Shown piece after piece: positions 45,883 through 63,292 of a DNA stretch of 64,000 nucleotides (position 1 is its first letter; each line of letters opens with the position of its first letter). Position numbers and translations under genes: made by a program. The stretch is taken from positions 4,378-68,377 of the forward strand of contig CACLBX010000003.1 in the NCBI GenBank assembly GCA_902605215.1. The letters are read 5' to 3'. The notes beneath the pieces are model-generated. The model searched no databases, was not told where the DNA came from, and worked only from the letters and a program-made list of their open reading frames with translations. The stretch is from an uncultured Pelagibacteraceae bacterium. GTDB lineage: Bacteria; Pseudomonadota; Alphaproteobacteria; Pelagibacterales; AG-422-B15.

Positions 45883-46947
45883 ATGGATCCACACTTAGTA
45901 GCAAAAAAAAACAAAGTTATTGATCTCATTAACAATCTAGAAGATGGCAACTTTGCATTGTTGCTCTTAATTCATATCTCTCGGTATCAAAATTTATTTT
46001 TGCATACAGAACCTGATTGGGAAAACAGCCCAAATAATTGGATAACCAAAGACAGACGACTCCAAGATGAGTCTATCGGAGTTCTTTCGTTCATCATTTT
46101 ATATTCTCTCACCAATGCGCATGTGGATGAAAATCTTTTTCCTGAATATAGAAAGCAAATTAAGGCAATGAAAATTGAAGATTTCTTGGATAATAATTTT
46201 TTTATTTCTCCATTCACAAATTTTATTGGAAAAAAAATATCTCTGAAAGTTCTTGAGTCATTTTTTTCTATTCCCCGAGAAAATATAAGACGATATATAA
46301 AGTCGTTGATAGAGGCTGGGTTTATTAGTAAAAACAAAAAGTATGGTTACCTTGTAAACATGGAGGCGTATGTTCAATACATATTTACAGACTCTCTTAG
46401 TAAAATTATGAAGTCACTCATGAGAACATTCGATGATATTATCGTTAATCTTGAAGAAAAGTATCAACTAAAATTAAATTTAAAACCAATCTCAGTTATA
46501 AATTTAGAAAAGACAAAACCCGATGTATGGAATCGAATTAGATTGCCCATGTATCACTTTTGGGTAAGAGTTCTAACACTAGAAGGCAATGATCACCTTT
46601 TAAGCCCCAATGATCGAGTTGTCTTATCTGCATCGATCTATTTTAGGAAACGTAAAGGAATATTAAATTTCACTAAAATTTCTGAGCTTTACGAAAATGA
46701 TTATCTCTTACCAACAAATATTTCATCAATTGCAGAGGCATCTAAAATGCCACGAGAAACTGTGAGGAGGTGTAGTAATAAATTAATAAAGATGAGACAT
46801 TTTGAAAAAAAAGGACGTCAACTGTATAGAATTAATTACGCTCATAAAGATGGAGAAATAGAAAATTTTATCAAGAATAAGAAAGTTACAACTCGCGATA
46901 TGATGAATTTTTATTTTAGAATTTACGATGATTTAGTTCAGATTTAA
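45883..46947 (+). CDS. Hypothetical protein with two winged-helix-like segments (possible regulator)
   Basis: 354 aa. IPRENIRRYIKSLIEAGFISK and ASKMPRETVRRCSNKLIKMRHFEKKGR look like recognition helices of MarR/Rrf2-like wHTH domains. Confidence 0.45.
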   Translation: MDPHLVAKKNKVIDLINNLEDGNFALLLLIHISRYQNLFLHTEPDWENSPNNWITKDRRLQDESIGVLSFIILYSLTNAHVDENLFPEYRKQIKAMKIEDFLDNNFFISPFTNFIGKKISLKVLESFFSIPRENIRRYIKSLIEAGFISKNKKYGYLVNMEAYVQYIFTDSLSKIMKSLMRTFDDIIVNLEEKYQLKLNLKPISVINLEKTKPDVWNRIRLPMYHFWVRVLTLEGNDHLLSPNDRVVLSASIYFRKRKGILNFTKISELYENDYLLPTNISSIAEASKMPRETVRRCSNKLIKMRHFEKKGRQLYRINYAHKDGEIENFIKNKKVTTRDMMNFYFRIYDDLVQI

Positions 46948-49721
46948 ATTGAGCACATTAAAATAATTTCTTCATTACAGACTAACTCAGCTTCAACAAT
47001 GGAACTATTTTGAGCACTTAATTGTGTATCAAGGGCTTCAAGCATAGATTTTGCTTCATTCATTGGTACTGGGCCTACAATAATGGAATAGTCATTTTTA
47101 TCTAATTTATCGACATTAATATCATATTTGAGAAATCTACTGTCAAATCCCATTACATCGTAAATATAATTCATAAAACTGAATGCAGAATTGCCACGTG
47201 TATACGATCCAATTTTTATATAAACATATTCAGCGTCACTGGTATCAATTGTTAATTCAGTTTCTTCAATATCGCTTGCTTGGGCACTAAATGCATTTGA
47301 TACAACTTCTGTAGGTTCTTCGATGAGTTGAGCGAGATCTTCTAATGCTTGGGTTGCTTCTTCAGCTAATTTATTTTCTAATTCAGTTGTGTTGTTGAGT
47401 TCTGTAAGTAAATCTCTCGCAGCATTGGCTTCCTCAACAAGGCTATTTTCATCAACAGCATTTAAAATTTTCTTTTTTGGTAAAACGCTAACCAATTCTA
47501 ATGTTTCTTCAGTATTATCAATTGTAGTTTCATCATTCGGCAATAGAGATGTATCTACCTGGTTCTCAATTGCATCAACCTCTGGAATCGCTTCTTCATC
47601 ACTATCGATTGCAGCTTCGTCGAGTATGTTTTGGGCTTTTTTAAGAGTACTATCAACAGAGTCTAACAAGTCATTCAGGCTATCTGCATCATTAATAATC
47701 ATTTCATTGGACACAGCATATTCATCCAAATCAATTTTTGGTTCATCAACAACTTCAGTAACTTCCGAAACTTCTTCATTAGTTTCCATGATTTCCTCAA
47801 CGGTCTCAATGCCTTGTTCTATGCTAATCTTATCCTCTTCAACTTGATTGAAACCTAACTGAATAAGTTCTTCTCTTGCGTTTTTACTTTCTTGGGCAAG
47901 GAATTCACCCTCATCCAAAAATTGAAGTGTGAAGTTATCCTCAACAGATACCAGTGCATTTGCAACAGAAACTTTTAATTTTATTCCAGATACGTCACTA
48001 GGAGGATTGCCCACAAATGACAAATCAGAAGTTAAAAAAGCAAGCCATCTTGGTAAAGCAGTTCCATCCTCTTGTGATGCTTCAAAACGCAGCTTGCCTG
48101 GTCCACTGATATTGAACGTATTGTCAGAAATTTGGAATTTATTACTGGTTTGTTGCGTATTGATTGGATCATTTATAATTAGAAGCATCGGATCCTGGTC
48201 ACTAATAGGAACATTTACCGCTGCTTGATAAACTTCTCCCCATTCAGAAAGATTAGTTTCAATATTTTTGCTCACATCCTCAATCGATAAATTCTGATGG
48301 TTTTCAGGCAGAATATCTTTTCCAAGTGATGCGTAAATTTGTCCAATACTGTGCTGCATTTCAGAGAAGGCTAAATCGCGTCGAAGTTCGGCAACCAATA
48401 AACTTGCTTCTTCCCGAATAACTTCAAGTTCGCCGAAGCGCGAGACTTTTTGTGCATTTTGTACTTGCTTACTGATCCTTTGAGCCACATCCAGGTATCT
48501 CTGCGCAGTATCATATTCTTCTATTGCTAAGGCATAATTCATATTTGAAAGATGGACTTGAGACAAAACTGTCATAGCAATAGCTAGATGACGTTCTGCA
48601 ATTAAATCTTTACTGGCTTTAGAAGATTTTTTTACAGCCCCTAATGAAAACACGTTAAAAAGGTTAGCTCCAATAGATGCGCCGTATTCTGTTGAGTCTT
48701 GGTTCAACAAATATTGATTGCTTGAATAACCGTAAGTCGCATTAAATTTTATACTTGGAATCAGCCCTAAAATAGCGGCTCTAGTATCCTTGCCAGTAAT
48801 CCTTTTTTGATAGCGACTTTCCATTAACTCAGGTCTTGAAACAAGTGCGATTTCTTCCATCTTTTCAATGTTCATATTTATATTAGTGAGGTAAGCATCA
48901 TCTCTTGACAGGCTAAACTTTTGACCAGGCAGTAATCCCATGAGTATCGCAAGTTCATTTTTGGAATTTATTAATGCTCGTTGTTGAGTTTGCAGCGTTC
49001 TTTGAACATCAAGTAATTCTTTTTGATAAAGTAATGAATCCATAGGTGCAGATATGAGAAGTTCTTCAATATACTTCGAGTCTGCAAGAGCTGTTTCAAC
49101 TCTCTCAAGAAGTGGATTTAATTTTTTTAAAAGATTTTCTGACGCCTGTGCTTTCCAGTAAGCGCGAATGATATCACGAGTAATGTTTTGTGTTGCTTTT
49201 CTCTCAAGTTCTTTAGCAATTAGATAACGATCCGCTTGTTGACCTGCTCGAATGTAGGACAAGCCAAAATCAAGAGCGTTCCATGTGAACTCAATATTTC
49301 TAGTTCTTAGACCTCTATCACGAGAAACAGTATAAGACTCAGTTCCATCAAGATCTGATGGTGGCTCACTATCATTTTCAACTGTAATACTCGTTGATGG
49401 CTGTAATTCATTAAATTCAGAGTAACCCGCATTGAGGGCAATATCTGGAAGCATATCAAAACGTTGAAGATCACTTTGCCTCTGCGCCAATGCAGACTCC
49501 ATTACGCTGATACGTAAGTCACGGTTGTTTTTAATGGCAATAGCAATTGCTGTATGGAGGTCTATGTTTTCTAGAGGAGCCTCAACTGTGAGCGACGATA
49601 AATCTTTTTGAATACTTATACTTAACTTTTCTGCGTCGATAACATTGGGTGTCCGAGCGCAGGCGCTAAGTGCAATCAATAGGAAGAGAGCTATTATTTT
49701 TGTAGTAATTTTTCTCATCAA
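46944..49721 (-). CDS. TolC/OEP-family outer-membrane lipoprotein fused to an Ig-like (dystroglycan/cadherin-type) domain, a long acidic linker and a SPOR-like C-terminal domain
   Basis: Lipobox LIALSAC (Cys21). About 430 aa of two-fold OEP-type helix/strand repeats. ALPRWLAFLTSDLSFVGNPP..IKLKVSV segment near 47930-48150. D/E-rich region 47236-47930. C-terminal YVYIKIGSY..YSIIVGPVPMNEAKSMLEAL. Confidence 0.8.
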   Translation of the reverse strand: MMRKITTKIIALFLLIALSACARTPNVIDAEKLSISIQKDLSSLTVEAPLENIDLHTAIAIAIKNNRDLRISVMESALAQRQSDLQRFDMLPDIALNAGYSEFNELQPSTSITVENDSEPPSDLDGTESYTVSRDRGLRTRNIEFTWNALDFGLSYIRAGQQADRYLIAKELERKATQNITRDIIRAYWKAQASENLLKKLNPLLERVETALADSKYIEELLISAPMDSLLYQKELLDVQRTLQTQQRALINSKNELAILMGLLPGQKFSLSRDDAYLTNINMNIEKMEEIALVSRPELMESRYQKRITGKDTRAAILGLIPSIKFNATYGYSSNQYLLNQDSTEYGASIGANLFNVFSLGAVKKSSKASKDLIAERHLAIAMTVLSQVHLSNMNYALAIEEYDTAQRYLDVAQRISKQVQNAQKVSRFGELEVIREEASLLVAELRRDLAFSEMQHSIGQIYASLGKDILPENHQNLSIEDVSKNIETNLSEWGEVYQAAVNVPISDQDPMLLIINDPINTQQTSNKFQISDNTFNISGPGKLRFEASQEDGTALPRWLAFLTSDLSFVGNPPSDVSGIKLKVSVANALVSVEDNFTLQFLDEGEFLAQESKNAREELIQLGFNQVEEDKISIEQGIETVEEIMETNEEVSEVTEVVDEPKIDLDEYAVSNEMIINDADSLNDLLDSVDSTLKKAQNILDEAAIDSDEEAIPEVDAIENQVDTSLLPNDETTIDNTEETLELVSVLPKKKILNAVDENSLVEEANAARDLLTELNNTTELENKLAEEATQALEDLAQLIEEPTEVVSNAFSAQASDIEETELTIDTSDAEYVYIKIGSYTRGNSAFSFMNYIYDVMGFDSRFLKYDINVDKLDKNDYSIIVGPVPMNEAKSMLEALDTQLSAQNSSIVEAELVCNEEIILMCSI

Positions 49722-49902: not shown

Positions 49903-52900
49903 ATGAGCAATAAACTTATTCAGGCTTTGGAACCCCGTCTCATGCTGGACGGTGCAGCAGTAGCAACGGCAATTGATGCGGTTGATGATTTAGCTCAGTT
50001 TCAAAAATCCGAGAGTGATAAGTCATTTAAAGCAGATCACTTCAAAGTTGATAAAGATACGAAACTCCCTTTCGTAAATGTAGACGCATCAGCTCAAAAT
50101 GCAAAATCAAGACAGATTGTATTTATCGATAGCACAGTAGAAGATATTGAAACGCTGATTAATAGTTTTGATAAAAATACTGAGGTGCATGTCATACAAA
50201 GTGATCAAGACGGATTTGTTACCATGCAAAATATTTTATCATCTCAAGAAAATATAGATGCGGTTCACGTCATTGGTCACGGTAGTGTTGGACAGATTGC
50301 ATTCGGTACAGCTGTATTAAACAGCGATACATTAAATGCTTATGAAAATATTCTTCAAGAGATTGGAACAAGTCTTTCAGTAAATGGAGATATTTTATTT
50401 TATGGTTGCAACGTAGCCGCAGATCAAAGTGGTGAGATCTTAATCAAACAAATTGCAGACATCACGGATGCTGATGTAGCGGCATCAGATGATATTACTG
50501 GTAAAGGCGGTGATTGGGACTTAGAGAAACATACAGGCATTATTGAAACTGAAAATGTTTCAGTTGTAGGTTACCAATATGCTCTAAGTAATGGCGTAAC
50601 AGCAACCCAAAATGCTGTTGAATTACATACTTCAGGTATGAATTTCATGGCAGGCGGCGGAACCTATAAAAATAACACTGGAGGTCAAACAGACTCAGGT
50701 GGAACCAGATACATCGTCACGCTTGAAAGAGGGAATGTAACAACTGGAGATACTTTAGATTTTGATTACGATGTAGCTTCAGCAACTCACGACCCTGATA
50801 CTCAAGGTGCTGTTAATGTTTATATGGTCTTCCTAAATGACTATGTAAACAGAAGAGCCGAAGATGATAGAGGTATTATAACTTTTGATAATGAAATTCT
50901 TGGTATTTTTACCACCCCAGAGAACACGATAGCAAAATCTGGATATGACATGAGTGATGGTATCTATCCTCTAACAACCAATTCGAAAAAAGTGCAGATG
51001 AGGGATTTAGAGTATCTGGATCCTCCTGCTACTCCTCCTGGTACTATGGGTAGCCAAGATGCCTTTACTGTAACAGGATCCAATAAAGTTTTAACCATGG
51101 CTACAGACAATGGACTAAAAGGAGACTTTGTCAGGGTGGTTACCAGAGTAGCTTCTGATCCCGTAGTGGGCAATAATGATTCTGGTTATATTAATGAAAA
51201 CTTAACATTAGGTGTCTCTAATGGCGCAAGCGCAAATGATAGCACACCAGATACATCAGGAGAACACACAGGTGATGTTTTGCTTAATGACACTGGTGGT
51301 GATGGATCTGATTTAATTGTGAGTGCAATAAATGGAGGGTCCCTCGGATCGCCAGTTGATGGCACTTATGGTCAATTAACACTCTTTTCAAATGGTTCAT
51401 ACAGTTACTCAGCTAATAAAGATGCTGCGAATGAATTAGATGCAAGTGATACAGAAACTGATACCTTTACTTATACGGTTTCTGATGGAAGCGATACTGC
51501 TACTGCAACAATCACAATTACTGTTGCAGGTGTGAATGATGCGCCCGTTGGAGCAGCTGATACAGGCTACATCAAAGAAGATGGAACGTTGTCTGTATCT
51601 AATGGTGGCTCTGCTGTTACAGGAACAGATAGCAACAATAATAATGAAAGTGGTGATACTACGGGTGATGTTTTGCTCAATGATACTGACCCAGATGCGA
51701 GTGCAAGCTTAGTAGTATCAGCAGTGCAAGGACAGGCTAGTAATGTTGATTCAAATGTTACAGGCACTTACGGTACATTAAATTTAGATGCAAATGGCTC
51801 ATATACCTATATAGCCAATCAAAGTGCTGCAGACGGACTCGCTGCTGGAGCAACGGCAACAGACACATTTTCTTATACTGTTAGTGACGGCACTGCAACA
51901 AGCACAGTAAATTTGGTCATCACGGTTATAGGGGTAGGGCCTGAAGCGGTCGCTGATACAGCTTCAGTTAATGAAAATGTTTTGCTTAATGCCAACAATG
52001 CATCGTCTACCGGTTTACTGGCTAATGATGACGACAATGCTGCTTATGATAGTGAGAGCTTAGCTGTTACGAACGTTAGTTCTAACTCTACAGGAAACAG
52101 TGGTAGTGCTACACAGGGAGTTCTCGGTACGTATGGTACGCTCACTGTGGCAGCTGATGGTACTTATACATATACGCCAAATACAGCAGCAGCTGAAGCA
52201 TTGGATGCAAATGACACTGAAACAGATGTCTTCACTTACACAGTAAAAGATGATGATGATAAAAATTCAAGTACTGCAACGCTTACAATCACAGTAACAG
52301 GTGTTGACGACAACCCGGTTGCTGTCAGTGATACAGGTTATATCAATGAGGATGGAACACTGGCTGTAGCAGATGGTGGCTCTGCTGTTACAGGAACAGA
52401 TAGCAACAATAATAATGAAAGCGGTGATACCACAGGCGATGTTTTACTCAATGACACTGACGCAGATGCGAGTGCAACTCTTGTTGTTTCTGCAATACAA
52501 GGTGGATCTTTAGGATCAGGTGTGAATGGAACCTATGGTACCCTCACTTTATATTCAACCGGTAGATATACATATGTTGCAGATAAGAGTGGCGCGGATG
52601 GACTTGCAGCAGATGCAGTTCAAACTGATGTCTTTACATATACTGTAAGTGATGGAGCTGGCGATACGAGTAACGCTACTCTTACAATTACAGTAAAGGG
52701 TATTGGTCCCCAAGGCGTAGCGGACACAGCGTCTGTAGCTGAAAATGCAACGGTAACCAACAACAATGCTGCCACAAACGGAGTGCTCGCAAACGATGAT
52801 GATAACGCATCATTTGACCAAGAAAGTCTTGCTGTAACGGCAATAACAGGTGCATCAGCAGGAACAGTTGATGGTGACACAACAGGAACTCATGGAACAC

Positions 52901-55900
52901 TTTCAATGAATGAAGATGGTACTTATTCTTATGCGGCGACTAATGATGCTCTTGATCCTAATGAGCAAGTTACAGATATATTTACTTACACTGTAAAAGA
53001 CGATGCGAATAAAAATGCAAGTACTGCGACATTAACAATAACAGTAACTGGAGCAAATGACCCAATTACTGCTGTTGCTGACACGGATGCTGTAAATGCT
53101 GGATCTACAATTTCTCGAAGTGAAACTGATACAGAAGAACTTGATCATGACGATACTGACCCTGATGGTGATGATGTATCAGGCAGCTTTACTATTACTA
53201 ATATCAGACATGGTTCTGATGATTATAACCCTGGTCAAGAAATTACGACATCAAAAGGTAGATTAACAGTCGATGCAAATGGTTCTTATACTTATGTAGC
53301 TGATCAAAGCGGTTCAACAGGCTTAGGAAACGGTGTTCAAGCAACTGATGTCTTCACTTATACAGTAAGAGATCACAGTGGAGGTGATACAGACACCGCA
53401 ACACTTACGATCACAATTACAGGAACTAACAATACAGCACCAGTTGCCAATACCGATGCAGGTTATATTCTGGAGGATGGTCGTCTTGAAGTAACAGATG
53501 GTGCGACGGCAAATGATGCTACTCCGGATGCAACAGGAGAACATACAGGGGATGTCTTATTAGATGATACTGATGCAAACAGTGACACACTTACTGTTTC
53601 AGCAATATCAGGAGGATCAGTGGGCTCTAATGCAAATGGGACTTACGGAACATTAGTAATTCAAAGTAATGGTAGCTATGTCTATACAGCGGATAAGACT
53701 GCAGCAGATGCATTGGATGCTGATGATGTGGTTACTGATCAATTTATCTATACAATTAGTGATGGCAATGGAGGAACTGCGACTTCAACACTTACCTTCA
53801 CCGTAAAAGGGATTGATGATGATCCTGTTGGTGTAGCCGATACAGGAGCAGTTGATGAAGACGCTCAACTTCAAGTAAATGCTGTAAGTGGAGTATTATC
53901 AAATGATACTGATGCTGATGCGAGTTCAAGTCTGTCCGTGACCACAGTTAGTTCCAATAACACAAGTCAAAGTGGAAGTGCTGGTTCAGAAATTACAGGC
54001 GAATTCGGGTCCCTCACACTAGATTCAGATGGAAAATATACATACACAGCCAATACTGCAGCTGCTGATAATTTAGCCCATAATGCAACGGCCACTGACG
54101 TGTTTACCTATACCGTCAGCGATGGCGCTGGAACGACCAGCAATACTACTCTTACAATTACAGTTACAGGGAAAGGCCCTGTTGGTTCTGCTGATTCTGC
54201 TGCAGTAAATGAAAATGTGTTACTCAGCAAGGATGAAGCAAGTGGTGTTCTAACAAATGATACTGGTGGAGATCAAGAAAGTCTTGCAGTTACTAATATT
54301 TCCTCAAATGATACCAGCGCAACAGGTACTGCTGGTCAGGGAGTGTTAGGAACCTACGGGACTTTAACTATGGCTGCAGATGGAAGTTATACATATACGC
54401 CTAATACAGCCGCCGCAGAGGCTCTAGATGGTGGTGACTCGGTTTCAGAAAAGTTTACCTATACAGTAAAAGATGATGAGGATAAAAATTCTTCAACCGC
54501 TGAACTTACAATTAATATTACAGGTGTTAATGATGCCATCGTTGCAGTTGATGATACGGATGCTGTTGATGAGGATGGTAGAGTAGACAGGTTAATTAGT
54601 GATGATCAAGAACTTGATCATGACGATACAGATGTGGATACGGATGATGTAAGCGGAAGTCTCACGATTACTGATATAAGAACAGGTCCTAAAGATGGAA
54701 CCGGAACTGATGGCACGGTAGGTGTGGCGCTAACAGGAGAATATGGAACACTGACAGTGAATGATGATGGATCATACACTTATATCGCTGATCAAGATAA
54801 ATCAGATCAACTTCCCACAGGTCAAACAGGAACAGATACATTTACCTACACTGTGAGTGATGGTACTGAAACTTCGACCGCACAACTGACTTTCAAAGTC
54901 ACTGGTATCAATGATAACGATCCAGTTGCTGTAGACGACACTGATACTGTAAATAGAGATGCATCCATAGATAGAACAAATGGATCTACATTTGATCTAG
55001 CTATTGATGATACAGATGCAGACTCGGATACATTAACCATTACTGAAATAAGAAAAGGCAACACTAAAGGTGGAGGTGATGCTGGAACTATAGGACAACC
55101 ACTAGTTGGTGAATACGGAACATTAACGTTACAAGCAGACGGCAGTTATAAATATGCTGCTGATCAAGACTCGATCAATAACCTTGGTCGTGGACAAAGT
55201 GTAATTGAGTATTTTAATTATACCGTATCTGATGGCTCAAGAACTACAACAGGACTACTTTCAATTACTGTAAATGGTATTAGTGATCCGCCTGTTCCAG
55301 TGGATGATACACTAGACATTGACGCTGGTGCACAAACAGAAAAAGGTGCAAATCAAGGGGTATTGATAAATGATACTGACCCTGATGGAGATCCTTTATC
55401 CGTGGAAAGCATTAGAACTGGTCAAGAAAATAAAACGGGGACATCAGGTACCATTGGAACAGCCTTACCAGGAACATATGGCGATTTAACTATGAATTCT
55501 GACGGAAGCTACATCTATCAAGCTAACAATGCAAAAGCACTAAATCCTGGTGAAACTGCTACAGAATACTTTACTTATACAGCAACCGACGGTGAGTCCT
55601 CAGTAGAAGCTCAAATTGCTATTACCGTGACAGGTCAAAATGATCCACCTGTAGCTTTATACCCTGTTCGAGATCCAAATGTAGTTACAGGTGAAAAATT
55701 TATTATCAGGCACAAACAAATTTTTGATGATCCAGACACAGGTATTTATGACATCGCAGAATACAAAATTATTGATCCTGAAGATGGTACAGAAGTAAGT
55801 CTTCCTGATGGACTAAGACTAAAACAAAATAAAATTCATGGATCCATTAGTACACCTGGGACATACAGTATTACAATCAGAGCAATTGATGGAGCAGGCC

Positions 55901-57027
55901 TCTATGCTGATCATACTTTTACAATCACAGTTAAGCCTGCATCAGGGTATATCGCTGAAAAGGATACTATTGATGAAGAAGCATCATCTACTTATGAAAC
56001 GGTTGTGATCAAACCAAAGAAAGATTATTTATCTGCAATTAAAGAAACAGTTAATGAGGGGTCCTTAGGTATCACTGATGAAGGCTTTACGTTGGATACA
56101 GTATCAATCGCTGATACCGCATCTCTTTCAAAACCTCTAAAATTCAATGGCGGTTTGCGATTGATGGATGCCGTTGCAAATGAAGTATCAGGCAATGAAG
56201 AGTCTGATTTATCAGTTGGTGTTAAATTGAATGATGATAATCAGAAAAATGTTGAACTGTATTCAGGAAAACTCTCTGACGGGAAAGCCTTACCCGAGTG
56301 GATACAAGTCAATCCTGAAACAGGCGAAACAACAGCCAATATGCCTGAAGGTGTGCAAGAAGTTGAAGTACAGCTTGTTGCCTTGGACAAAGACGGTAAC
56401 ACAAGAGATATCAACATTGTTCTGGATAAAGCAAAAATTAAAAACGACCAAGAATTTACTCGAGGTAACGTTGGTCAAACACAGGTTGTGGTTGATAATG
56501 ATGCCAATGTAAATCTAATTCGTAAAAGTGATGGCAAGACTGATCAAGTAGCATCAAACAATTTAAATGCTGAAACGGACTTCCTAGGCACCATGAAGCT
56601 TAGCGATGTCCAAATGGATGCGGGCAAATATACTCTGGATATGATCGATGACAATCAATCAAATGTAAAAATGTATAAAGCCGAGATGAAAGATGGGGGC
56701 TCTTTACCTGAATGGATTACTATTGATTCAGATACAGGATCAATCTCGCTAGACCCATCAATAGCTCGAACAGGTTCTGCAGCCTCAGTATTTTTAACGG
56801 ACAGTCTTCAAGTGCTTGAGTTTAAAATTATTGCTGAGGATGAAGATGGCAAAGAGAGAATAATCGAAGTTGAAATTAATCTTGATGAAATCGCTACGCC
56901 ATCTGAAACTGAAGAGCAAGCTGAGGAAACTGATGAAGTTTCGTTTATTCCTCTTGATGAACAACTTAAGGTACAGTCTCAGAAAATAGATAATTATGGC
57001 GAAAAAATTATTAGTCTTGTAAGCTAA
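49903..57027 (+). CDS. Giant (2374 aa) surface adhesin-like protein: N-terminal LEPRLMLDGAA motif + DUF4347, 12 VCBS/cadherin-like repeats, C-terminal Ig-like (He_PIG/dystroglycan-type) domains
   Basis: No hydrophobic signal peptide. DUF4347-like block QIVFIDSTVED..VHVIGHGSVGQIAFG..ILFYGCNVA (about 50110-50550). Twelve units ending (F/Y)TYTVSDG/KDD...ATLTITVTG(V/I)(N/D)D. SLPDGL..GSISTPGTYSITIRAIDGAG and two LPEWI..D..TG domains at the C-terminus. Confidence 0.9.
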   Translation: MSNKLIQALEPRLMLDGAAVATAIDAVDDLAQFQKSESDKSFKADHFKVDKDTKLPFVNVDASAQNAKSRQIVFIDSTVEDIETLINSFDKNTEVHVIQSDQDGFVTMQNILSSQENIDAVHVIGHGSVGQIAFGTAVLNSDTLNAYENILQEIGTSLSVNGDILFYGCNVAADQSGEILIKQIADITDADVAASDDITGKGGDWDLEKHTGIIETENVSVVGYQYALSNGVTATQNAVELHTSGMNFMAGGGTYKNNTGGQTDSGGTRYIVTLERGNVTTGDTLDFDYDVASATHDPDTQGAVNVYMVFLNDYVNRRAEDDRGIITFDNEILGIFTTPENTIAKSGYDMSDGIYPLTTNSKKVQMRDLEYLDPPATPPGTMGSQDAFTVTGSNKVLTMATDNGLKGDFVRVVTRVASDPVVGNNDSGYINENLTLGVSNGASANDSTPDTSGEHTGDVLLNDTGGDGSDLIVSAINGGSLGSPVDGTYGQLTLFSNGSYSYSANKDAANELDASDTETDTFTYTVSDGSDTATATITITVAGVNDAPVGAADTGYIKEDGTLSVSNGGSAVTGTDSNNNNESGDTTGDVLLNDTDPDASASLVVSAVQGQASNVDSNVTGTYGTLNLDANGSYTYIANQSAADGLAAGATATDTFSYTVSDGTATSTVNLVITVIGVGPEAVADTASVNENVLLNANNASSTGLLANDDDNAAYDSESLAVTNVSSNSTGNSGSATQGVLGTYGTLTVAADGTYTYTPNTAAAEALDANDTETDVFTYTVKDDDDKNSSTATLTITVTGVDDNPVAVSDTGYINEDGTLAVADGGSAVTGTDSNNNNESGDTTGDVLLNDTDADASATLVVSAIQGGSLGSGVNGTYGTLTLYSTGRYTYVADKSGADGLAADAVQTDVFTYTVSDGAGDTSNATLTITVKGIGPQGVADTASVAENATVTNNNAATNGVLANDDDNASFDQESLAVTAITGASAGTVDGDTTGTHGTLSMNEDGTYSYAATNDALDPNEQVTDIFTYTVKDDANKNASTATLTITVTGANDPITAVADTDAVNAGSTISRSETDTEELDHDDTDPDGDDVSGSFTITNIRHGSDDYNPGQEITTSKGRLTVDANGSYTYVADQSGSTGLGNGVQATDVFTYTVRDHSGGDTDTATLTITITGTNNTAPVANTDAGYILEDGRLEVTDGATANDATPDATGEHTGDVLLDDTDANSDTLTVSAISGGSVGSNANGTYGTLVIQSNGSYVYTADKTAADALDADDVVTDQFIYTISDGNGGTATSTLTFTVKGIDDDPVGVADTGAVDEDAQLQVNAVSGVLSNDTDADASSSLSVTTVSSNNTSQSGSAGSEITGEFGSLTLDSDGKYTYTANTAAADNLAHNATATDVFTYTVSDGAGTTSNTTLTITVTGKGPVGSADSAAVNENVLLSKDEASGVLTNDTGGDQESLAVTNISSNDTSATGTAGQGVLGTYGTLTMAADGSYTYTPNTAAAEALDGGDSVSEKFTYTVKDDEDKNSSTAELTINITGVNDAIVAVDDTDAVDEDGRVDRLISDDQELDHDDTDVDTDDVSGSLTITDIRTGPKDGTGTDGTVGVALTGEYGTLTVNDDGSYTYIADQDKSDQLPTGQTGTDTFTYTVSDGTETSTAQLTFKVTGINDNDPVAVDDTDTVNRDASIDRTNGSTFDLAIDDTDADSDTLTITEIRKGNTKGGGDAGTIGQPLVGEYGTLTLQADGSYKYAADQDSINNLGRGQSVIEYFNYTVSDGSRTTTGLLSITVNGISDPPVPVDDTLDIDAGAQTEKGANQGVLINDTDPDGDPLSVESIRTGQENKTGTSGTIGTALPGTYGDLTMNSDGSYIYQANNAKALNPGETATEYFTYTATDGESSVEAQIAITVTGQNDPPVALYPVRDPNVVTGEKFIIRHKQIFDDPDTGIYDIAEYKIIDPEDGTEVSLPDGLRLKQNKIHGSISTPGTYSITIRAIDGAGLYADHTFTITVKPASGYIAEKDTIDEEASSTYETVVIKPKKDYLSAIKETVNEGSLGITDEGFTLDTVSIADTASLSKPLKFNGGLRLMDAVANEVSGNEESDLSVGVKLNDDNQKNVELYSGKLSDGKALPEWIQVNPETGETTANMPEGVQEVEVQLVALDKDGNTRDINIVLDKAKIKNDQEFTRGNVGQTQVVVDNDANVNLIRKSDGKTDQVASNNLNAETDFLGTMKLSDVQMDAGKYTLDMIDDNQSNVKMYKAEMKDGGSLPEWITIDSDTGSISLDPSIARTGSAASVFLTDSLQVLEFKIIAEDEDGKERIIEVEINLDEIATPSETEEQAEETDEVSFIPLDEQLKVQSQKIDNYGEKIISLVS
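51150..55650 (+). repeat. Tandem array of about 12 coding repeats (about 100-130 codons each) inside the adhesin gene, with an about 257-codon higher-order period
   Basis: Recurrent FTYTV(S/K)D(G/D) .. TLTITVTG.(N/D)D unit boundaries. A 47-nt tract at 51604-51650 is identical to 52375-52421 (offset 771 nt). Confidence 0.85.
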
Positions 57028-57039
57028 TTCTGTAAATAA

Positions 57040-57759
57040 ATGAATAAAGTTAAAACATCGTTAGCAGCGTTTTGCTTTCTTTTTATATCTTTTGGGGCAC
57101 TAGCTGAAGAAAGAACAACACGTATTTTAGTTACTGCAACTGAAGAGGCGACTTTATCAAGTGAAATTTCAGCAAAAATAATTTCTATTCCTGTAAAAGC
57201 AGGAAATAACTTTAGTAAATCAGATATTTTAATTGAATTTGACTGTTCCTTTTTTGAAGCTCAAAAAGATGTCGTACAAGCAGAACTAGATAGTGCCAGA
57301 GTAACTCTAAAAAGTAACCAAGAGCTTGCTGCGATGAGATCTATTGGAGAGTACGAAGTTCAACTATCTCGAATAGCAGTTGATCGAGCACAATCAGAAT
57401 TAAATATTGCAGAACTCAACACTGATCGTTGTATTATTCAAGCGCCCTATGACGGAGTCATGTCCAAAGTCTTTGTAAATGAGTACGAAAGTATTGAAAG
57501 GCAACAGCCATTGATTGAAATTATTGGTTCAGGCACATTAGAGGCAAAACTTATGATATCAAGTAAATGGCTATCATGGTTATCTGAAGGATATCCTCTA
57601 AGTATAGTTATTGATGAGAATGGCTTAGAGTATAGTGCACAAATACATTCTTTAGGTGCAGATATAGATCCGGTAAGTCAGACGATTGATGCTACCGCAC
57701 AATTTGATAAAAATTATGAGACATTACTTCCAGGAATGAGTGGGACAGCAACGTTTTGA
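57040..57759 (+). CDS. Short periplasmic HlyD/MFP-type adaptor (secreted, 239 aa)
   Basis: Signal peptide ..FISFGALA/EE. Barrel-sandwich segments ISAKIISIPVKAGNNFSKSDILIEF and IIQAPYDGVMSKVFVNEYE flank a short coiled coil. Confidence 0.75.
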   Translation: MNKVKTSLAAFCFLFISFGALAEERTTRILVTATEEATLSSEISAKIISIPVKAGNNFSKSDILIEFDCSFFEAQKDVVQAELDSARVTLKSNQELAAMRSIGEYEVQLSRIAVDRAQSELNIAELNTDRCIIQAPYDGVMSKVFVNEYESIERQQPLIEIIGSGTLEAKLMISSKWLSWLSEGYPLSIVIDENGLEYSAQIHSLGADIDPVSQTIDATAQFDKNYETLLPGMSGTATF

Positions 57760-59099
57760 ATGATAATTCTTCAATAAAAATTGCACGACTAATTACACTT
57801 GAAAAAAAGTTTCGTAACGCTGAAAGTGAAACAGAACTTGGTTTTATTTGTGCTAACGAATTACGGAGTATAGTTGACTATAATTTCTTATTTATTCTCA
57901 ACAGATCAAGCATAAACCGACTTAAAGTGAATACTATTTCTGATTTATCAGTCATTGATAGAACAGCTCCAACCGTTACCTTTATTGAGGGATTGCTCAA
58001 TAAGAAAGGAATGATCAAAAGTGATGAAGTATCTGCAATTAGTCTTCAAAGCCTTGATTTAGATAAAGTAAATCTAAATATCCCTGAAAATTTTCCAAAT
58101 CATTTAGTCTTTGTTCCTTTGTCTTCACGAATAGAAAAAAATATTGGTTACTTAGTTCTTGTAAGAACAGAACCAGTTACAAGTTCAGAAAAAGATTTAT
58201 TATTACACATCTCTGAAAGCTTTAGCCATGCGCTCACTGCTTTTGGCTCAAAAAAAACGGTTTTAACAAGTATCAGTCGTATATTTACAGGGTGGGTAAA
58301 GTGGCTAGTGATTGCATCCATAACTGTGGTGATGTTCTTTCCTATTAGCATGTCAGCTTTGGCGCCTGTAGAGGTGGTTGCAAAAGATCCAACTATAGTT
58401 ACATCACCTGTGAACGGTGTTGTTGAAAAAGTTTTAATTAAGACCAACGAAAATGTAAAACCAGGTACAGAACTAGTTAAACTGGACGATTTAAATTTTA
58501 AAAATCAGTATGAAATTGCACTTCAGAAACTTGAAGTAGCTGAAGCCGAGCTGTTAAGAGTTAAGCAGTCATCATTTTCAAATGAAGATGATAAAGCACG
58601 CCTGGTTGAACTTTCAACTGAAGTAGGTTTAAGGAAAAAAGAAGCCACCTACGCAGAAGAACAATTGAAATACTCAATCATTTCTGCTGAGCGAGAGGGT
58701 ATAGCGGTGGTTGAAGACTTTACTGATTGGCAAGGGAGACCTGTTACCATTGGCGAAAAAATATTAACTATAGCTGATCCTCAACGCATTGAATTTCAAA
58801 TCTTTTTACCCACTAAAGATTCTCTTTTGATTAAAAAAGAAGCCAGAGTAAAAGTGTTTTTAGATAGTGACCCTCTTAATTCTCTTGAAGGAGAAGTCTT
58901 GCGTACTTCTTATAAGCCTGCTCTTACGGCTGAGAATATTTTAGCATATCAGATTTTTGCAAAATTAGATGAAAACCAAGGAGAAGTTCCAAGAATAGGT
59001 TTACGAGGTACAGCAAAAATTTACGGAGAAAAAACAAGTATTTTTTACTACATATTCCGTGTTCCTATAAATCTTACGAGACAATTTTTAGGTTTTTAG
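57756..59099 (+). CDS. HlyD-family adaptor with an about 170-aa cytoplasmic N-terminal domain and a single TM
   Basis: TM WLVIASITVVMFFPISMSAL, then IVTSPVNGVVEKVLIKTNENVKPGTELVKLDD, a coiled coil, and IISAEREGIAVV. 4-nt overlap upstream and no gap downstream. Confidence 0.75.
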   Translation: MNDNSSIKIARLITLEKKFRNAESETELGFICANELRSIVDYNFLFILNRSSINRLKVNTISDLSVIDRTAPTVTFIEGLLNKKGMIKSDEVSAISLQSLDLDKVNLNIPENFPNHLVFVPLSSRIEKNIGYLVLVRTEPVTSSEKDLLLHISESFSHALTAFGSKKTVLTSISRIFTGWVKWLVIASITVVMFFPISMSALAPVEVVAKDPTIVTSPVNGVVEKVLIKTNENVKPGTELVKLDDLNFKNQYEIALQKLEVAEAELLRVKQSSFSNEDDKARLVELSTEVGLRKKEATYAEEQLKYSIISAEREGIAVVEDFTDWQGRPVTIGEKILTIADPQRIEFQIFLPTKDSLLIKKEARVKVFLDSDPLNSLEGEVLRTSYKPALTAENILAYQIFAKLDENQGEVPRIGLRGTAKIYGEKTSIFYYIFRVPINLTRQFLGF

Positions 59100-61205
59100 A
59101 TGACTGTTCCATACTTAAGACAAGATTTGAAATTGAGTGAGGGTCCCAAAAAAGAGGATGGCTCTTCATCGTGGCTGCTTTATGACTCTTTAAGAAATAA
59201 ATATTTTTCGATCAATAAAAATGCTTTTGATCTCTTAAACAACTGGTCAAGTGGATCTCAATTAGATGATTTCATTAAAAAAATTAATGAAGTTAACTTA
59301 TTAGTAAGTGAAGAAGAAATAAATGAATTTATCAATTTTCTAGATCAAAATAATTTGACGATCAAAAAGACCAGTGAAGAAGTAAAGTCTTTAGTGGTTC
59401 AAAAAAACAAAACGAACAAACATTGGCTACTTAAACTCATTCATAACTATCTATTTTTCAAAATACCTTTAGTAAGACCTGGGACTTGGCTTCAAACAAG
59501 TTTACCCATTGCCTTGTTCTTGAGCTCATTAACAGTCAGACGCATAATTTATGGTTTTGGAATAATTGGAATATTTCTGACAATAACTAATTATGAGAAA
59601 TTTCTCTCAACCTTTTCATATTTCTACAATATTAATGGTCTGATCTTATTTGGAATTACAATTGTTTTTGTAAAGGCTTTACATGAGTTGGGTCATGCGT
59701 ACGTAGCTACATACTATAAGTGTAAAGTTTCATCAATTGGCTTAGCCATGTTGGTTTTCTTTCCATTCTTATATACGGATACATCCGATGCCTGGAAACT
59801 CACTGATCACAGAAAACGTTTACTAATAAATTTTGCAGGCATGTTAACTGAACTACACCTAGCCTTGATTGCTACATTTGCATGGGCTGTATTTCCTGAG
59901 GGCATCATGAAAAGTGCAGCATTTTTTATTGCAACATCAAGCTGGATCTCATCATTGTTAATAAATATAAGTCCCTTTATGCGGTTTGATGGCTATTATG
60001 TTCTCTCTGATTTTCTTAAAGCTGAAAATTTGCAACTGCGTTCATTTGCTTTAGGTCGATGGCAGATAAGAGAGTGGCTCTTTGGTTTTAAATTTCAGCC
60101 ACCTGAACAGTTGATCGCTAACAGAAGGTGGACTTTTATAATTTATGCATGGGCTACGTGGATTTATCGTTTCTTCATTTTTATTGGTATTGCATTATTG
60201 GTTTATTATTTAACATTTAAAATATTAGGGATTATTTTATTTGTAATAGAAATTGTATGGTTCATTTTATTGCCGATTGCTAGAGAAGTTATTCAATGGT
60301 GGAAGCTTAGAAAGTCGATGAAATTCAATAGATCTTCTATGAGGTCTATCGTCTTGTTCACAGCATTTATGATTGCCATGCTTGTTCCATGGCGTACATC
60401 TCTAAGTTTGCCAGCTGTTATTGAAGAAGGTGTTGTTCTTGATATTTTTGCATCGGAGGACTCAAAGATAAGAAAAGTTAATGTTTTGCATAATCAGTAT
60501 GTAGCTGAGGGAGACTTGCTAGTTGTTATGACTAGTCCTTTGATCTCTAATAAAGTTGAAAAAGCAATAGATCGTGTAAAAATGATACAGCAAAAACTTG
60601 ATCGTAGAGTGGGATCAAAGCTTGATCTTAGTAATCTATTAATACTAGAGAATGAGTTACAAAAAGAGATTGAAATTCTGAATTCATTGAAAGAAGAAAA
60701 TAAAGCTTTATCAATTTATGCACCATCAGATGGCATAATAAAAGATTTGATAAGTCTCAGCGCTAATCAATGGGTAAATAAAAAAGATAAGCTATTTTCA
60801 ATTGTTCAGTCAGAAGAGGTACAAGTGATAGCTTTTGTTAGCGAGACGGATCTTGATAAAATAAAAAAAGTTTCAAGCGGTTATTTTTATGCAAAAAATA
60901 ATGAATTTGCGAAAGTCAAAGTCGAATTAGTATCATCAAATGAAACTTCAACCGAAGAGTTGCCGTATTTAGCTTTGACCTCAACTTATGGAGGCACAAT
61001 TGCATCAAGAGAAATACTTGGAAAGAAAAAAGTTCAGAGACCTGAAAATGCTCTTTATCAACTAAATTTCACTTCTTCAGAGAGTCTAAAAGATTTACAG
61101 TGGCAGACAGCTGGATCTGTTAAAATAGATTCAGAAAATTATAATATTTTTCAAAATATATTTAACGCCACGACTTCAATACTCATTCAGGAAAGTGGGT
61201 TCTAG
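59100..61205 (+). CDS. Tri-domain protein: PqqD/RRE-like N-domain + site-2 protease (peptidase M50) membrane core + HlyD-like periplasmic C-domain
   Basis: HELGH at 59682-59696. NISPFMRFDG (NxxPxxxxDG) at 59964-59993. Several TM helices. C-terminal LDIFASEDSKIRKVNVLHNQYVAEGDLLVV, a coiled coil, then IYAPSDGIIKDL. N-terminal WLLYDSLRNKYFSINKNAFDLLNNW..EEINEFINFLDQNNL. Confidence 0.8.
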   Translation: MTVPYLRQDLKLSEGPKKEDGSSSWLLYDSLRNKYFSINKNAFDLLNNWSSGSQLDDFIKKINEVNLLVSEEEINEFINFLDQNNLTIKKTSEEVKSLVVQKNKTNKHWLLKLIHNYLFFKIPLVRPGTWLQTSLPIALFLSSLTVRRIIYGFGIIGIFLTITNYEKFLSTFSYFYNINGLILFGITIVFVKALHELGHAYVATYYKCKVSSIGLAMLVFFPFLYTDTSDAWKLTDHRKRLLINFAGMLTELHLALIATFAWAVFPEGIMKSAAFFIATSSWISSLLINISPFMRFDGYYVLSDFLKAENLQLRSFALGRWQIREWLFGFKFQPPEQLIANRRWTFIIYAWATWIYRFFIFIGIALLVYYLTFKILGIILFVIEIVWFILLPIAREVIQWWKLRKSMKFNRSSMRSIVLFTAFMIAMLVPWRTSLSLPAVIEEGVVLDIFASEDSKIRKVNVLHNQYVAEGDLLVVMTSPLISNKVEKAIDRVKMIQQKLDRRVGSKLDLSNLLILENELQKEIEILNSLKEENKALSIYAPSDGIIKDLISLSANQWVNKKDKLFSIVQSEEVQVIAFVSETDLDKIKKVSSGYFYAKNNEFAKVKVELVSSNETSTEELPYLALTSTYGGTIASREILGKKKVQRPENALYQLNFTSSESLKDLQWQTAGSVKIDSENYNIFQNIFNATTSILIQESGF

Positions 61206-61211
61206 TATAAT

Positions 61212-63254
61212 CTAATTTTTATATTTTTCTAAGCATAGCAAGAAAGCATTATCCAACGAGCTTTCTTCCAAAGCATTTAATCGTCCACTTTTTCCAGCAT
61301 GACCACCTACTAAATTCATCTTCATTAATATTGGATTATCTGAAGTACTATTTTCTCTGAGTTTTGGGACATATTTGGCTGGTTCGTAATACTGAACTTG
61401 AGAGTCATAAAGACTGGATGTGACTAATACAGCGGGATAATTTGAAGGCTTAATGTTATCGTAGGGCGAATAACTCTTAATATAATTATACTCATCTTCA
61501 TTTGCTGGATTACCCCATTCTTTATATTCAAAAGTAGTTAGGGGAATTGTTTCATCTGACATTGTAGTCACTACATCCACAAAAGGAACTGCTGAAATAA
61601 TACCTGTATATAATTCTGGCTCCATATTAATGATTGCTCCCATTAAAAGACCACCAGCACTTCCACCCATTGCATATACATTTTTAGAATTGCCATACCC
61701 TTGATTGATTAGTGATTTTGTTGCATCAATAAAATCATAAAATGTATTCTTTTTATTAAAGATTTTGCCATCATCGTACCACTGTCGACCCATCTCAGAG
61801 CCACCTCTGATATTGGCGATAGCAAAAACGAAACCCCGATTGAGTAGGGGTAAGATGGACGTTCTAAAAGCTGCATCAATTATAATGCCATAAGACCCAT
61901 AGCCATAAATAAGGATAGGAGCTTGAGATAAGTCAGTTCCTTTTTTATATACTAGTGATACAGGAACTTTTGTATCATCACGGGCAGTAATTTTAAGTCT
62001 TTCCACCTCATATAGATTTTCATCGTAATTGTTTACAGGCTGCTGCCATGCCAGTTTAATCTTACCTGACTCTATATCCTCTTTGAATATTGAACTAGGT
62101 TTCTTTGGACTCGAATACCCATAGTAAAATTCAGTATCAAGGTACTCATTATTGGTTGCTAAATAACAAGAAAAGGCAGGGTCACTAAATTCAATATAAG
62201 TCCTATCGAGTGTTTCTCTGTTAATTTTTACTATCTTGGGCAGACCGTCCTCTCTTATCTCTAAATAAAGATATTGAGGAAAAGTGACAAAATCTTCAAT
62301 TAAAATGGCATCATTATGCTCAACAACAGTTTGCCAACTATTAAAATTATTAATTTGATCTATGGTAAATTTTAAAATTGAGAAATTTTTTTTATTTTCT
62401 GCATTACTGCTGACATAGAAACACTCTGGTGTGTCTTCAATGGAATAAAGATGCTTATCGGAACGTTTGAGTACACAAAACGGTTGACCGAGTTCATCAT
62501 CTAGATCAAGTAACCATGTCTCTGAAGACTCAGTTTTACTAGTATAGATATTTAAATATTTTTTTGTACGTGACTCATAAATATGAAGATGAAACTCTGA
62601 GTCATTTTCTTCATATATTAAAACATCTTCTTCAGGATCAGTTCCGATCTTGTGCTTAAAAACTTTATTTTCTATTAAAGTTACAGAATCTTTTTGAGCA
62701 TAATAAAATGAAGTATTTTTCTTATCCCATACAATACTTCCAGAACTTCTCTCAATACTACTATCTATTATTTTTCCCGTTTCTAGTTCTTTTATTTTTA
62801 TATTATATTCGCGGCGACCTGATAAATCTTCGGCATATGCAATGAAAAGATTATTTGGTGAGGGAGTTATTGAAGTAACATTTATATAATCCAAACCCTC
62901 GGCCAGTGCATTTACATCTATAACTAATTCTTTATTACCATTTTGTTCGCGGTAGTATGTTTTGTATTGTTGATCAGAGTTGATTTCGGAATAATAGAGA
63001 TAGTCTCCGTATTTAATTTTCATTGAAACTTCATTCGGCGGTATGAAGCTGACTAATTCTTCATATATTTCTTTACGGCTATCATTATTATTCGCAAACC
63101 AATCCTCTAAGTATTTATTTTCTTCTTCTAAATAGGAGATTATTTCTTTATTTTTACGAGTATCATCCCTCAACCAATAATAATCATCAATTCGTTCATC
63201 GCCATGTGCAATATGAATTTTAGGAATTTTTTTTGGTCGTGGAGGTCTCATCAT
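61212..63254 (-). CDS. ptrB: Oligopeptidase B / prolyl oligopeptidase family S9A serine protease
   Basis: HGDERIDDYYWLRD N-terminus, beta-propeller region, GGSAGGLLMG (catalytic Ser) and a C-terminal GGHAG. The ORF-track TTG at 63287 is probably not the start; I use ATG 63254. Confidence 0.88.
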   Translation of the reverse strand: MMRPPRPKKIPKIHIAHGDERIDDYYWLRDDTRKNKEIISYLEEENKYLEDWFANNNDSRKEIYEELVSFIPPNEVSMKIKYGDYLYYSEINSDQQYKTYYREQNGNKELVIDVNALAEGLDYINVTSITPSPNNLFIAYAEDLSGRREYNIKIKELETGKIIDSSIERSSGSIVWDKKNTSFYYAQKDSVTLIENKVFKHKIGTDPEEDVLIYEENDSEFHLHIYESRTKKYLNIYTSKTESSETWLLDLDDELGQPFCVLKRSDKHLYSIEDTPECFYVSSNAENKKNFSILKFTIDQINNFNSWQTVVEHNDAILIEDFVTFPQYLYLEIREDGLPKIVKINRETLDRTYIEFSDPAFSCYLATNNEYLDTEFYYGYSSPKKPSSIFKEDIESGKIKLAWQQPVNNYDENLYEVERLKITARDDTKVPVSLVYKKGTDLSQAPILIYGYGSYGIIIDAAFRTSILPLLNRGFVFAIANIRGGSEMGRQWYDDGKIFNKKNTFYDFIDATKSLINQGYGNSKNVYAMGGSAGGLLMGAIINMEPELYTGIISAVPFVDVVTTMSDETIPLTTFEYKEWGNPANEDEYNYIKSYSPYDNIKPSNYPAVLVTSSLYDSQVQYYEPAKYVPKLRENSTSDNPILMKMNLVGGHAGKSGRLNALEESSLDNAFLLCLEKYKN

Positions 63255-63292
63255 TGTCTTATATATTACCGATATTTTTTTCTTCAATCTTG

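Follow-up and report, generated by a model that had tools for sequence, protein, structure and literature searches.

Here, we describe a 701-aa protein encoded at positions 59100-61205 of a 64,000-nucleotide stretch of DNA from an uncultured Pelagibacteraceae bacterium (assembly GCA_902605215.1, contig CACLBX010000003.1, positions 4,378 to 68,377). We refer to the whole stretch as the window, and features lie on its forward strand unless stated otherwise. The protein joins in one chain an N-terminal domain with the predicted fold of PqqD and of the recognition elements (RREs) of peptides that are ribosomally synthesized and modified posttranslationally (RiPPs), a six-helix site-2-protease core of the M50 family, and a membrane fusion protein (MFP) domain. 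We propose, with a probability of roughly 0.6, that it is the inner-membrane hub of an envelope-spanning apparatus for giant proteins headed by a LEPR leader, in which it would act as an RRE-dependent intramembrane leader peptidase. An earlier inspection of the letters alone (the sequence-only reading) had noted this fusion and had deduced from it the capture of a substrate, its cleavage, and its hand-off to an outer-membrane channel. Our analyses confirmed the observation and the domain assignments, and the interpretation is the best supported of those considered, fits the conserved gene context, and now has strong evidence from comparative genomics behind it, which also identifies the substrate signal.

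The gene for the RRE-M50-MFP fusion is an intact open reading frame (ORF) of 701 codons, and its ATG start codon begins at the base directly after the stop codon of the upstream gene. The six-transmembrane (TM) protease core (aa 144-402; 59529-60305) was delimited from predicted helices, the positive-inside alternation of its loops, and a profile match to the archaeal site-2 protease mjS2P (3b4r; E 1.5e-4, at the HExxH helix). It contains the zinc-binding and catalytic motif HELGH (aa 195-199; 59682-59696), inside helix 178-205, and the second motif of this protease family, NISPFMRFDG (aa 289-298; 59964-59993), with Asp297 as the third zinc ligand. HExxH is kept in 149 of the 149 aligned family members, which share 32-98% identity, and H195, E196, and H199 as well as N289, D297, and G298 are invariant in the family alignment (the second motif was scored in 125 sequences). 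Both motifs had been picked out from the sequence beforehand, and they proved to be conserved among orthologues; judged by residue conservation, the site-2-protease core is catalytically intact. The expected family assignments were also obtained, as Peptidase_M50 (PF02163) matched aa 186-391 with 36.7 bits (cut-off 27.2), and HlyD_3 and HlyD_D23 matched the region of aa 449-615 with 42.9 bits (cut-off 22.2) and 33.4 bits (cut-off 30), respectively, all above the Pfam gathering scores. The MFP domain (aa 432-701; 60393-61202) comprises an α-hairpin (aa 480-535) and a conserved C-terminal helix that ends in RESGF, and in a search of the family profile against the PDB it matched HlyD of the haemolysin system (8dck_C) with an E-value of 2.8e-12.

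A full-length AlphaFold2 model, built with a 125-sequence alignment, has a mean pLDDT of 86.8. It begins with three strands (residues 11-14, 25-29, and 34-38) and three helices (40-47, 55-64, and 71-83), continues with amphipathic helices as far as residue 141, of which helix 128-141 is not hydrophobic, and then enters the membrane with helices 144-163, 178-205, 237-264, 269-289, 340-371, 374-402, and 411-428. Helix 178-205 carries HExxH, and helix 269-289 runs into NxxPxxxxDG. The remainder, as far as residue 701, is modelled as a lipoyl, α-hairpin, and β-barrel module. In the 125 homologues, the mean number of Lys and Arg residues in successive loops alternates between high and low (4.5, 1.0, 6.3, 0.02, 5.4, 1.0, and 5.2, the last value being for the loop before the seventh TM helix). 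Because of this alternation, we predict seven TM helices with the N terminus inside and the C terminus outside, such that the N-terminal domain is cytoplasmic, the seventh helix (aa 411-428; 60330-60383) leads the chain into the periplasm, and aa 429-701 are periplasmic. The placement of the two flanking domains thus agrees with that assumed in the sequence-only reading, and the HlyD-like part is not placed in the cytoplasm. In the predicted topology, both zinc motifs are at the cytoplasmic ends of their TM helices, as is expected for a core of the SpoIVFB type. When the full-length model was used as a Foldseek query, all matches were adaptor proteins, with MacA (5nik_D; E 5e-11) followed by EmrA, MexA, and AcrA. 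The MFP pattern seen earlier at the C terminus is therefore evident from the Pfam matches, the modelled module, and the structural neighbors alike.

Because the full-length search gave adaptors only, we modelled and searched the N-terminal domain (aa 1-90; 59100-59369) by itself. The resulting model, with three strands (residues 11-15, 24-29, and 34-38) followed by the three helices named above, has a pLDDT of 85.6, and its nine best matches in the PDB are all RREs, including TbiB1 with a bound leader peptide (5v1u and 5v1v), the RRE of the sactipeptide enzyme CteB (5why and 5wgg), PqqD (5sxy), and a lasso-peptide B1 protein (6jx3). Foldseek probabilities for the nine were 0.72-0.99, with at least 0.87 for the best eight, and TM-scores reached 0.64. 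Residues R7, G21, W25, D29, W49, F80, and L86 are invariant across the family. These data support that aa 1-90 adopt a PqqD/RRE fold; the resemblance that had been suspected from the pattern of this ~90-aa domain is thus borne out at the level of the fold, while sequence models give a weak signal, as detailed below.

The architecture is fixed and widespread. An exhaustive HMMER search over 1.84 billion cluster representatives yielded 2,459 clusters at 50% identity (E≤1e-30), and the best 150 of the 2,459 representatives are nearly all ~700 aa long and align end to end with 32-49% identity. This fixed length and architecture across a conserved family argue that the protein is no chance fusion. 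The family occurs in at least 600 species, counted with one genome per GTDB species. Among the matches listed are a protein with 97% identity from the single-cell genome AG-457-O16 (Pelagibacteraceae) and proteins from Pseudomonas, Stutzerimonas, Halomonas, Marinomonas, Azospirillum, Methylobacterium, Azonexus, Candidatus Nitrospira defluvii, Scalindua, Desulfobacterota, and Sulfurimonas. The annotation of the family is generic at NCBI ("site-2 protease family protein" or "HlyD family efflux transporter periplasmic adaptor subunit"), and at JGI it is labelled "putative peptide zinc metalloprotease" (YydH-like).

The gene at 59100-61205 is the last of four tightly packed co-directional genes. 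The first of the four encodes a giant repeat adhesin of 2,374 aa (49903-57027; identified with Pfam and NCBIfam models), which we presume to be the substrate. It is followed by the gene for a 239-aa adaptor (57040-57759) with a Sec signal peptide (hydrophobic N terminus, aa 4-22) and a periplasmic adaptor domain of the RND_mfp type (NCBIfam; 101 bits, cut-off 94.9), the position of which is conserved. The third gene, the start of which overlaps the upstream stop by 4 nt, encodes a 447-aa adaptor (57756-59099; Pfam HlyD_3) that is present in nearly all loci and consists of a GAF-like cytoplasmic domain (aa 1-182; 57756-58301), a TM helix (aa 184-202), and a HlyD-type periplasmic domain. The Pfam GAF model matches the N-terminal domains of eight of 17 orthologues of this adaptor (best E 2.5e-5) and gives no match to the window copy; the GAF-like domain suggests that the apparatus is controlled by a small molecule or second messenger. 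Upstream of the adhesin gene and divergently transcribed (46944-49721, reverse strand), a fourth partner is a TolC-like outer-membrane factor (OMF) of 925 aa (Pfam OEP, E 1.2e-34; He_PIG).

To compare loci, ORFs were called in 80 genome loci and labelled with hidden Markov models built from seed contigs, and neighbor families were counted by all-against-all clustering of the ORFs. Almost every one of the 80 loci with enough flank has the same gene set, and only three families are conserved around the gene, i.e., adaptor-domain proteins (77/80), giants (59/80), and OEP proteins (46/80); the OEP gene was seen in metagenome loci too. On SAR11 contigs, a giant gene (6,339-9,101 aa) precedes genes for proteins of 237, 444, and 700 aa; on contigs from Nitrospira, gammaproteobacteria, and others, the OEP gene comes first and is followed by genes for proteins of ~260, ~450, and ~710 aa and then by that for a DUF4347 giant. 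Altogether, the cassette spans Alpha-, Beta-, Gamma-, and Zetaproteobacteria, Nitrospirota, Desulfobacterota, and Campylobacterota.

The link between the cassette and the giants is found in the leader. The window adhesin begins with MSNKLIQA-LEPRLMLDGAAVAT, and the leader, which has no Sec-type signal, is followed by a DUF4347 domain (aa 72-218; 50116-50556; PF14252, E 2e-48), 12 cadherin-like/VCBS repeats, and He_PIG. Its core, LEPRLMLDGA (aa 9-18; 49927-49956), scores 16.3 bits with the NCBIfam model LEPR-XLL (NF012209; cut-off 17) and is common to 40 other giant ORFs, such that the leader heads 41 giant ORFs beside the cassette. The consensus, LE(P/S/Q)Rx(M/L)(F/L)D(G/A)AxxAT, comes after a short, often basic stretch within the first 20-80 residues of the giants. 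In 2.75 million six-frame residues from the 80 loci, the strict motif occurs 35 times, and every occurrence heads a long ORF; no short ORF or small precursor peptide with the motif was present in these residues.

We also performed the reverse test, in which metagenome contigs were scanned with the DUF4347 profile and leader-bearing giants were compared with leaderless ones, in which the DUF4347 domain comes first. Cassette genes were in range of 23 of the 36 DUF4347 giants with a LEPR-like leader and of none of the 43 leaderless ones (Fisher p = 5e-11). When only contigs with at least 4 kb of flank outside the giant ORF were counted, the numbers were 15/17 and 0/21 (Fisher p = 9e-9). Because of the difference between 23/36 and 0/43, we conclude that the leader, and not DUF4347, is coupled to the cassette. 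DUF4347 itself had been considered as the mark of the system, and this candidate was rejected, as leaderless DUF4347 giants were never found with the cassette.

The closest characterized relative of the first two domains is MpaP of the daptide pathway, in which an RRE fused N-terminally to an intramembrane site-2 protease removes a leader with the motif ELExMEAP (bioRxiv 10.1101/2023.03.08.531785; Ren et al. 2023). The two proteins share the N-terminal RRE followed by an M50 intramembrane protease, and both go with a substrate, which is presumed in our case, that has a short conserved leader motif (ELExMEAP for MpaP and LEPRxMFDGA here). The NCBIfam model daptide_HExxH (NF041824) matches aa 23-390, including the N-terminal domain, with an E-value of 4e-36 and 125 bits; with an equivalog cut-off of 300 bits, the 701-aa protein is thus a homologue and not an equivalog of MpaP. 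The differences are substantial. MpaP has neither the seventh TM helix nor the MFP domain, and it belongs to Gram-positive RiPP clusters that include modification enzymes and have substrates of tens of residues, whereas here a TolC-like channel and two adaptors accompany the protein and the presumed substrates are 2,000-9,000 aa long. For another M50 protease, EpeP, a review notes a presumed dual role in the cleavage and the export of its peptide (PMC10885120).

Based on this comparison, we propose that the RRE domain of the 701-aa protein would bind the leader core in the cytoplasm by strand addition, as RREs do with RiPP leaders, and that the M50 site would remove or clip the leader, as MpaP does with daptide precursors directly after the recognition motif. 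The three adaptor domains could assemble into a sleeve in the periplasm and dock on the trimeric OEP, and the 2,374-aa adhesin would thereby reach the cell surface or be held there. With respect to the protease, the likeness to SpoIVFB, mjS2P, and RseP lies in HExxH and NxxPxxxxDG within TM helices, the six-TM core, and the SpoIVFB-type orientation; these proteases differ in having CBS or PDZ domains where the protein described here has an RRE and an MFP domain, and the presumed substrate here is a soluble N-terminal leader rather than a TM helix.

Several points limit this model or weigh against it. First, leader binding, cleavage, and export are steps that we infer, and the cytoplasmic domain of the GAF-TM adaptor could be the leader receptor instead. 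Second, the evidence for an RRE is weak at the level of sequence: Pfam PqqD (PF05402) matches two of 40 members (best E 8e-4), the NCBIfam model for the PqqD-family chaperone PqqD_rel_WgkC matches aa 23-86 weakly (E 3e-5, far under the cut-off), and a PDB profile search with the N-terminal domain gave no PqqD sequence match. With a PqqD signal from sequence models that is weak or negative, a fold-level test was needed, and the E-values of the Foldseek matches are themselves modest (0.03-0.2), although the matches are specific. Third, co-variation between leader and RRE speaks for the model, but we count it as a weak hint: when the other two domains were controlled for, the divergence of the leader was correlated across 42 loci with that of the RRE (partial Mantel rho 0.24, p = 0.006), less with that of M50 (rho 0.15, p = 0.04), and not significantly with that of the MFP domain (rho 0.05); partial Mantel tests are liberal with phylogenetically related sequences. 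Fourth, the RLS motif (Rx3Lx6S) for docking on TolC is present in only 11 of the 125 members of the family; Arg502 at the hairpin tip is conserved in 104/125 and may stand in for it. Finally, no ATPase, whether of an ABC transporter or of another kind, is conserved within 10 kb of the gene in the 80 genome loci, a feature on which the sequence-only reading had not remarked, and no cassette component obviously drives a protein of 2,000-9,000 aa across the inner membrane. The conserved neighbors at these loci likewise include no RND or MFS transporter or ABC exporter family. Importer ATPases of the LivG/F type form the next most common neighbor family and the sole ABC cluster; they occur at 13 of the 80 loci and are not related to the cassette.

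The lack of an ATPase in the cassette also fits a different division of labor, in which an unlinked type I (ABC) system exports the adhesin C terminus first while the RRE clamps the leader in the cytoplasm, with DUF4347 as a plug; a cut of this tether by the M50 site, possibly under the control of the GAF domain, would then shed the adhesin in a manner resembling LapA, LapG, and LapD. In the LapA system, export is by the type I system LapEBC, and release is controlled by LapG, a periplasmic cysteine protease, together with LapD; LapA has C-terminal RTX repeats and uses an ABC transporter. As in that system, the gene for a giant repeat adhesin lies next to those for an MFP/OMF export apparatus, proteolysis at the N terminus would be a plausible point of control, and a membrane partner bears a cytoplasmic domain that senses small molecules (a GAF-like one in our case); this sensor-like domain on the second adaptor counts in favor of retention and release. 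In contrast to the LapA system, the periplasmic cysteine protease, the RTX repeats, and the ABC transporter are all absent here. The extreme C termini of the giants argue in both directions. A conserved amphipathic motif, composed of hydrophobic-x-x-L-x-x-Q-L, 10-14 residues, and Y-G-x-x-L-x-x-L (SFIPLDEQLKVQSQKIDNYGEKIISLVS in the window adhesin; 56941-57024), is present in eight of 15 leader-bearing giants and in none of 20 leaderless ones, indicating that leader-bearing giants may carry signals at both ends, and it could address an unlinked exporter. RTX and serralysin domains lie at the C terminus of one LEPR-XLL giant from the literature (PMC10868602); by comparison, the window adhesin and most other giants have no RTX repeats, with 0-3 copies of GGxGxD per protein. 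No ABC exporter is conserved near the gene in the 80 loci, i.e., the dedicated ABC transporter that characterizes type I secretion was not found there. Moreover, some leaderless DUF4347 giants end in a different, type I-like motif, which suggests that leader-bearing giants take another route. We consider retention and release a serious alternative to leader-dependent export, from which it differs in timing and not in parts, albeit an unlikely one.

Two further explanations seem very improbable to us. If the cassette were a RiPP or bacteriocin maturation and export module, then its true substrate would be a small unannotated precursor and the giant a mere neighbor; RRE-site-2-protease fusions are indeed known from RiPP pathways only, and the JGI name of the family points the same way, but the sole conserved leader-like motif in the 80 loci heads giant ORFs and never short ones, no modification enzymes are conserved around the gene in these loci, and the presence of the leader on a giant predicts the cassette. 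Classical regulated intramembrane proteolysis, with a membrane-anchored anti-sigma factor as target and the periplasmic HlyD-like part as sensor, or an efflux pump with a vestigial protease could be invoked since most characterized bacterial site-2 proteases (RseP, SpoIVFB, and RasP) serve signalling and adaptors and OEPs are mostly efflux-pump parts, but no sigma/anti-sigma pair and no gene for an RND, MFS, or ABC pump is conserved nearby, the N-terminal domain has a fold of the peptide-leader-binding type, and the invariance of the catalytic residues argues that the protease is not vestigial.

Returning to leader-dependent export by an RRE-guided peptidase, we tentatively suggest that the cassette could represent a distinct type of secretion or anchoring system, in which an OMF and three adaptors would form an envelope-spanning duct whose inner-membrane core is an RRE-guided intramembrane metalloprotease where other systems have an ABC, RND, or MFS transporter, which would run without an ATPase of the cassette, and which would be dedicated to giants addressed by an N-terminal LEPR leader together with a C-terminal motif. 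Parts of this arrangement have precedents. Peptidase-containing ABC transporter (PCAT) systems such as CvaB/CvaA/TolC export bacteriocins with double-glycine leaders and combine a C39 cysteine peptidase with an ABC ATPase motor. These systems already follow the principle, proposed for the cassette as well, that the leader protease is part of the export machinery. The cassette differs in its protease (an M50 metalloprotease with an RRE), in the fusion of the adaptor to this protease and not to a separate transporter, and in that it encodes no ATPase. TriABC-OpmH is a pump with two different adaptors and thus resembles the cassette in directing several distinct adaptors to one OMF, while three adaptor-domain proteins are present here. 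Similarly, aa 432-701 have the fold of HlyD, MacA, EmrA, and MexA, as seen in the Foldseek and profile matches; the differences are that the adaptor is fused to a protease instead of being paired with a transporter and that the RLS motif is absent.

It is already known that RREs and site-2 proteases form a module (daptides, 2023) and that adaptors function with OMFs (textbook knowledge), as is the leader-protease logic of PCATs. In the open-access literature, we found no publication on an RRE-site-2-protease fused to an MFP domain, no description of a cassette of three adaptors and an OMF without a transporter, and neither a coupling of such a cassette to LEPR-XLL giants nor a function for LEPR-XLL. 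If correct, our model would provide a function for this orphan signature, which stands at the start of some of the longest proteins in bacteria; it would account for how a surface protein of up to 9,101 residues is handled in SAR11, the most abundant marine bacteria, whose genomes are very small; and it would show that leader recognition guided by an RRE serves giant proteins as well as small peptides of natural-product pathways. As an ATPase is apparently lacking, a concrete and testable question is how such export is powered. Homologous cassettes are present in culturable Pseudomonas, Stutzerimonas, Halomonas, and Marinomonas, which makes genetics straightforward.

The leader and the giants also vary between lineages. 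A variant leader, MEPR(V/L)LLSAD, in the metagenome loci L131, L152, and L121 goes with longer cassette proteins (an M50-adaptor protein of 739-740 aa and a second adaptor of 599-624 aa), which points to co-diversifying subtypes of leader and cassette. The extreme C-terminal motif of leader-bearing giants was also found in the giant ORFs of L011, L013, L016, L030, L039, L062, and L070 and further at those of L078, L100, L103, L107, and L110. In typical Candidatus Pelagibacter (L001-L003), with a genome of ~1.3 Mb, the cassette comes after a giant gene of 6,339-9,101 codons, a heavy investment at this genome size. The lineage of the window has the shorter giant of 2,374 aa, and the G+C content inside the adhesin gene is 0.40-0.42, compared with ~0.33 around it.

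Leaderless DUF4347 giants of the metagenome loci L096, L111, L134, and L157 end in LYYDADGSG...A..FA...L.A.DFIV, which we take to resemble a C-terminal target domain of type I secretion; this suggests that DUF4347 proteins use two alternative export routes. In the DUF4347 domain, YGC is invariant and (S/G)HG nearly so, and the two resemble a His/Cys pair on a Rossmann-like fold. A Cys/His protease was considered for this domain and rejected: whereas the Cys of YGC never varies, some Nitrospira copies have Glu in place of the His of SHG. The profile matched chain G of 9qpe, a solved structure that bears the name "DUF4347 domain-containing protein", with an E-value of 1.7e-4, and the DUF4347 protein PA0256 of Pseudomonas aeruginosa has been proposed to be an Hcp-dependent effector of the type VI secretion system (PMC8262886).

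Among the cassette partners, the 925-aa OMF is unusual in having an extra Ig-like domain (He_PIG), which is part of a C-terminal extension of ~400 aa; in most other loci, the protein is ~500-560 aa long, and a long form (809-950 aa) is also present in the marine alphaproteobacterial loci L088, L089, L092, and L094. In Pseudomonas loci (L069, 12127-13593; L085, 14143-14988), 2-4 kb separate the protease-adaptor gene from the giant gene. The genes in this gap are lineage-specific and encode a GNAT acetyltransferase, a protein with a phage-tail-collar domain, and a sulfotransferase, for which the giant protein may be the target of modification.

The convergent neighbor of the fusion gene in the window (61212-63287, reverse strand) encodes a 691-aa protein of the oligopeptidase B/prolyl oligopeptidase family S9 and is probably unrelated because it is not conserved beside the cassette in other taxa. 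Searches of the window for Rfam families and tRNAs gave no matches. Elsewhere in the window, a 552-aa ORF (41028-42686, reverse strand) is without any Pfam match, while a 354-aa ORF (45883-46947, forward strand) just upstream of the OEP gene has only a sub-threshold helix-turn-helix match and might be a local regulator.

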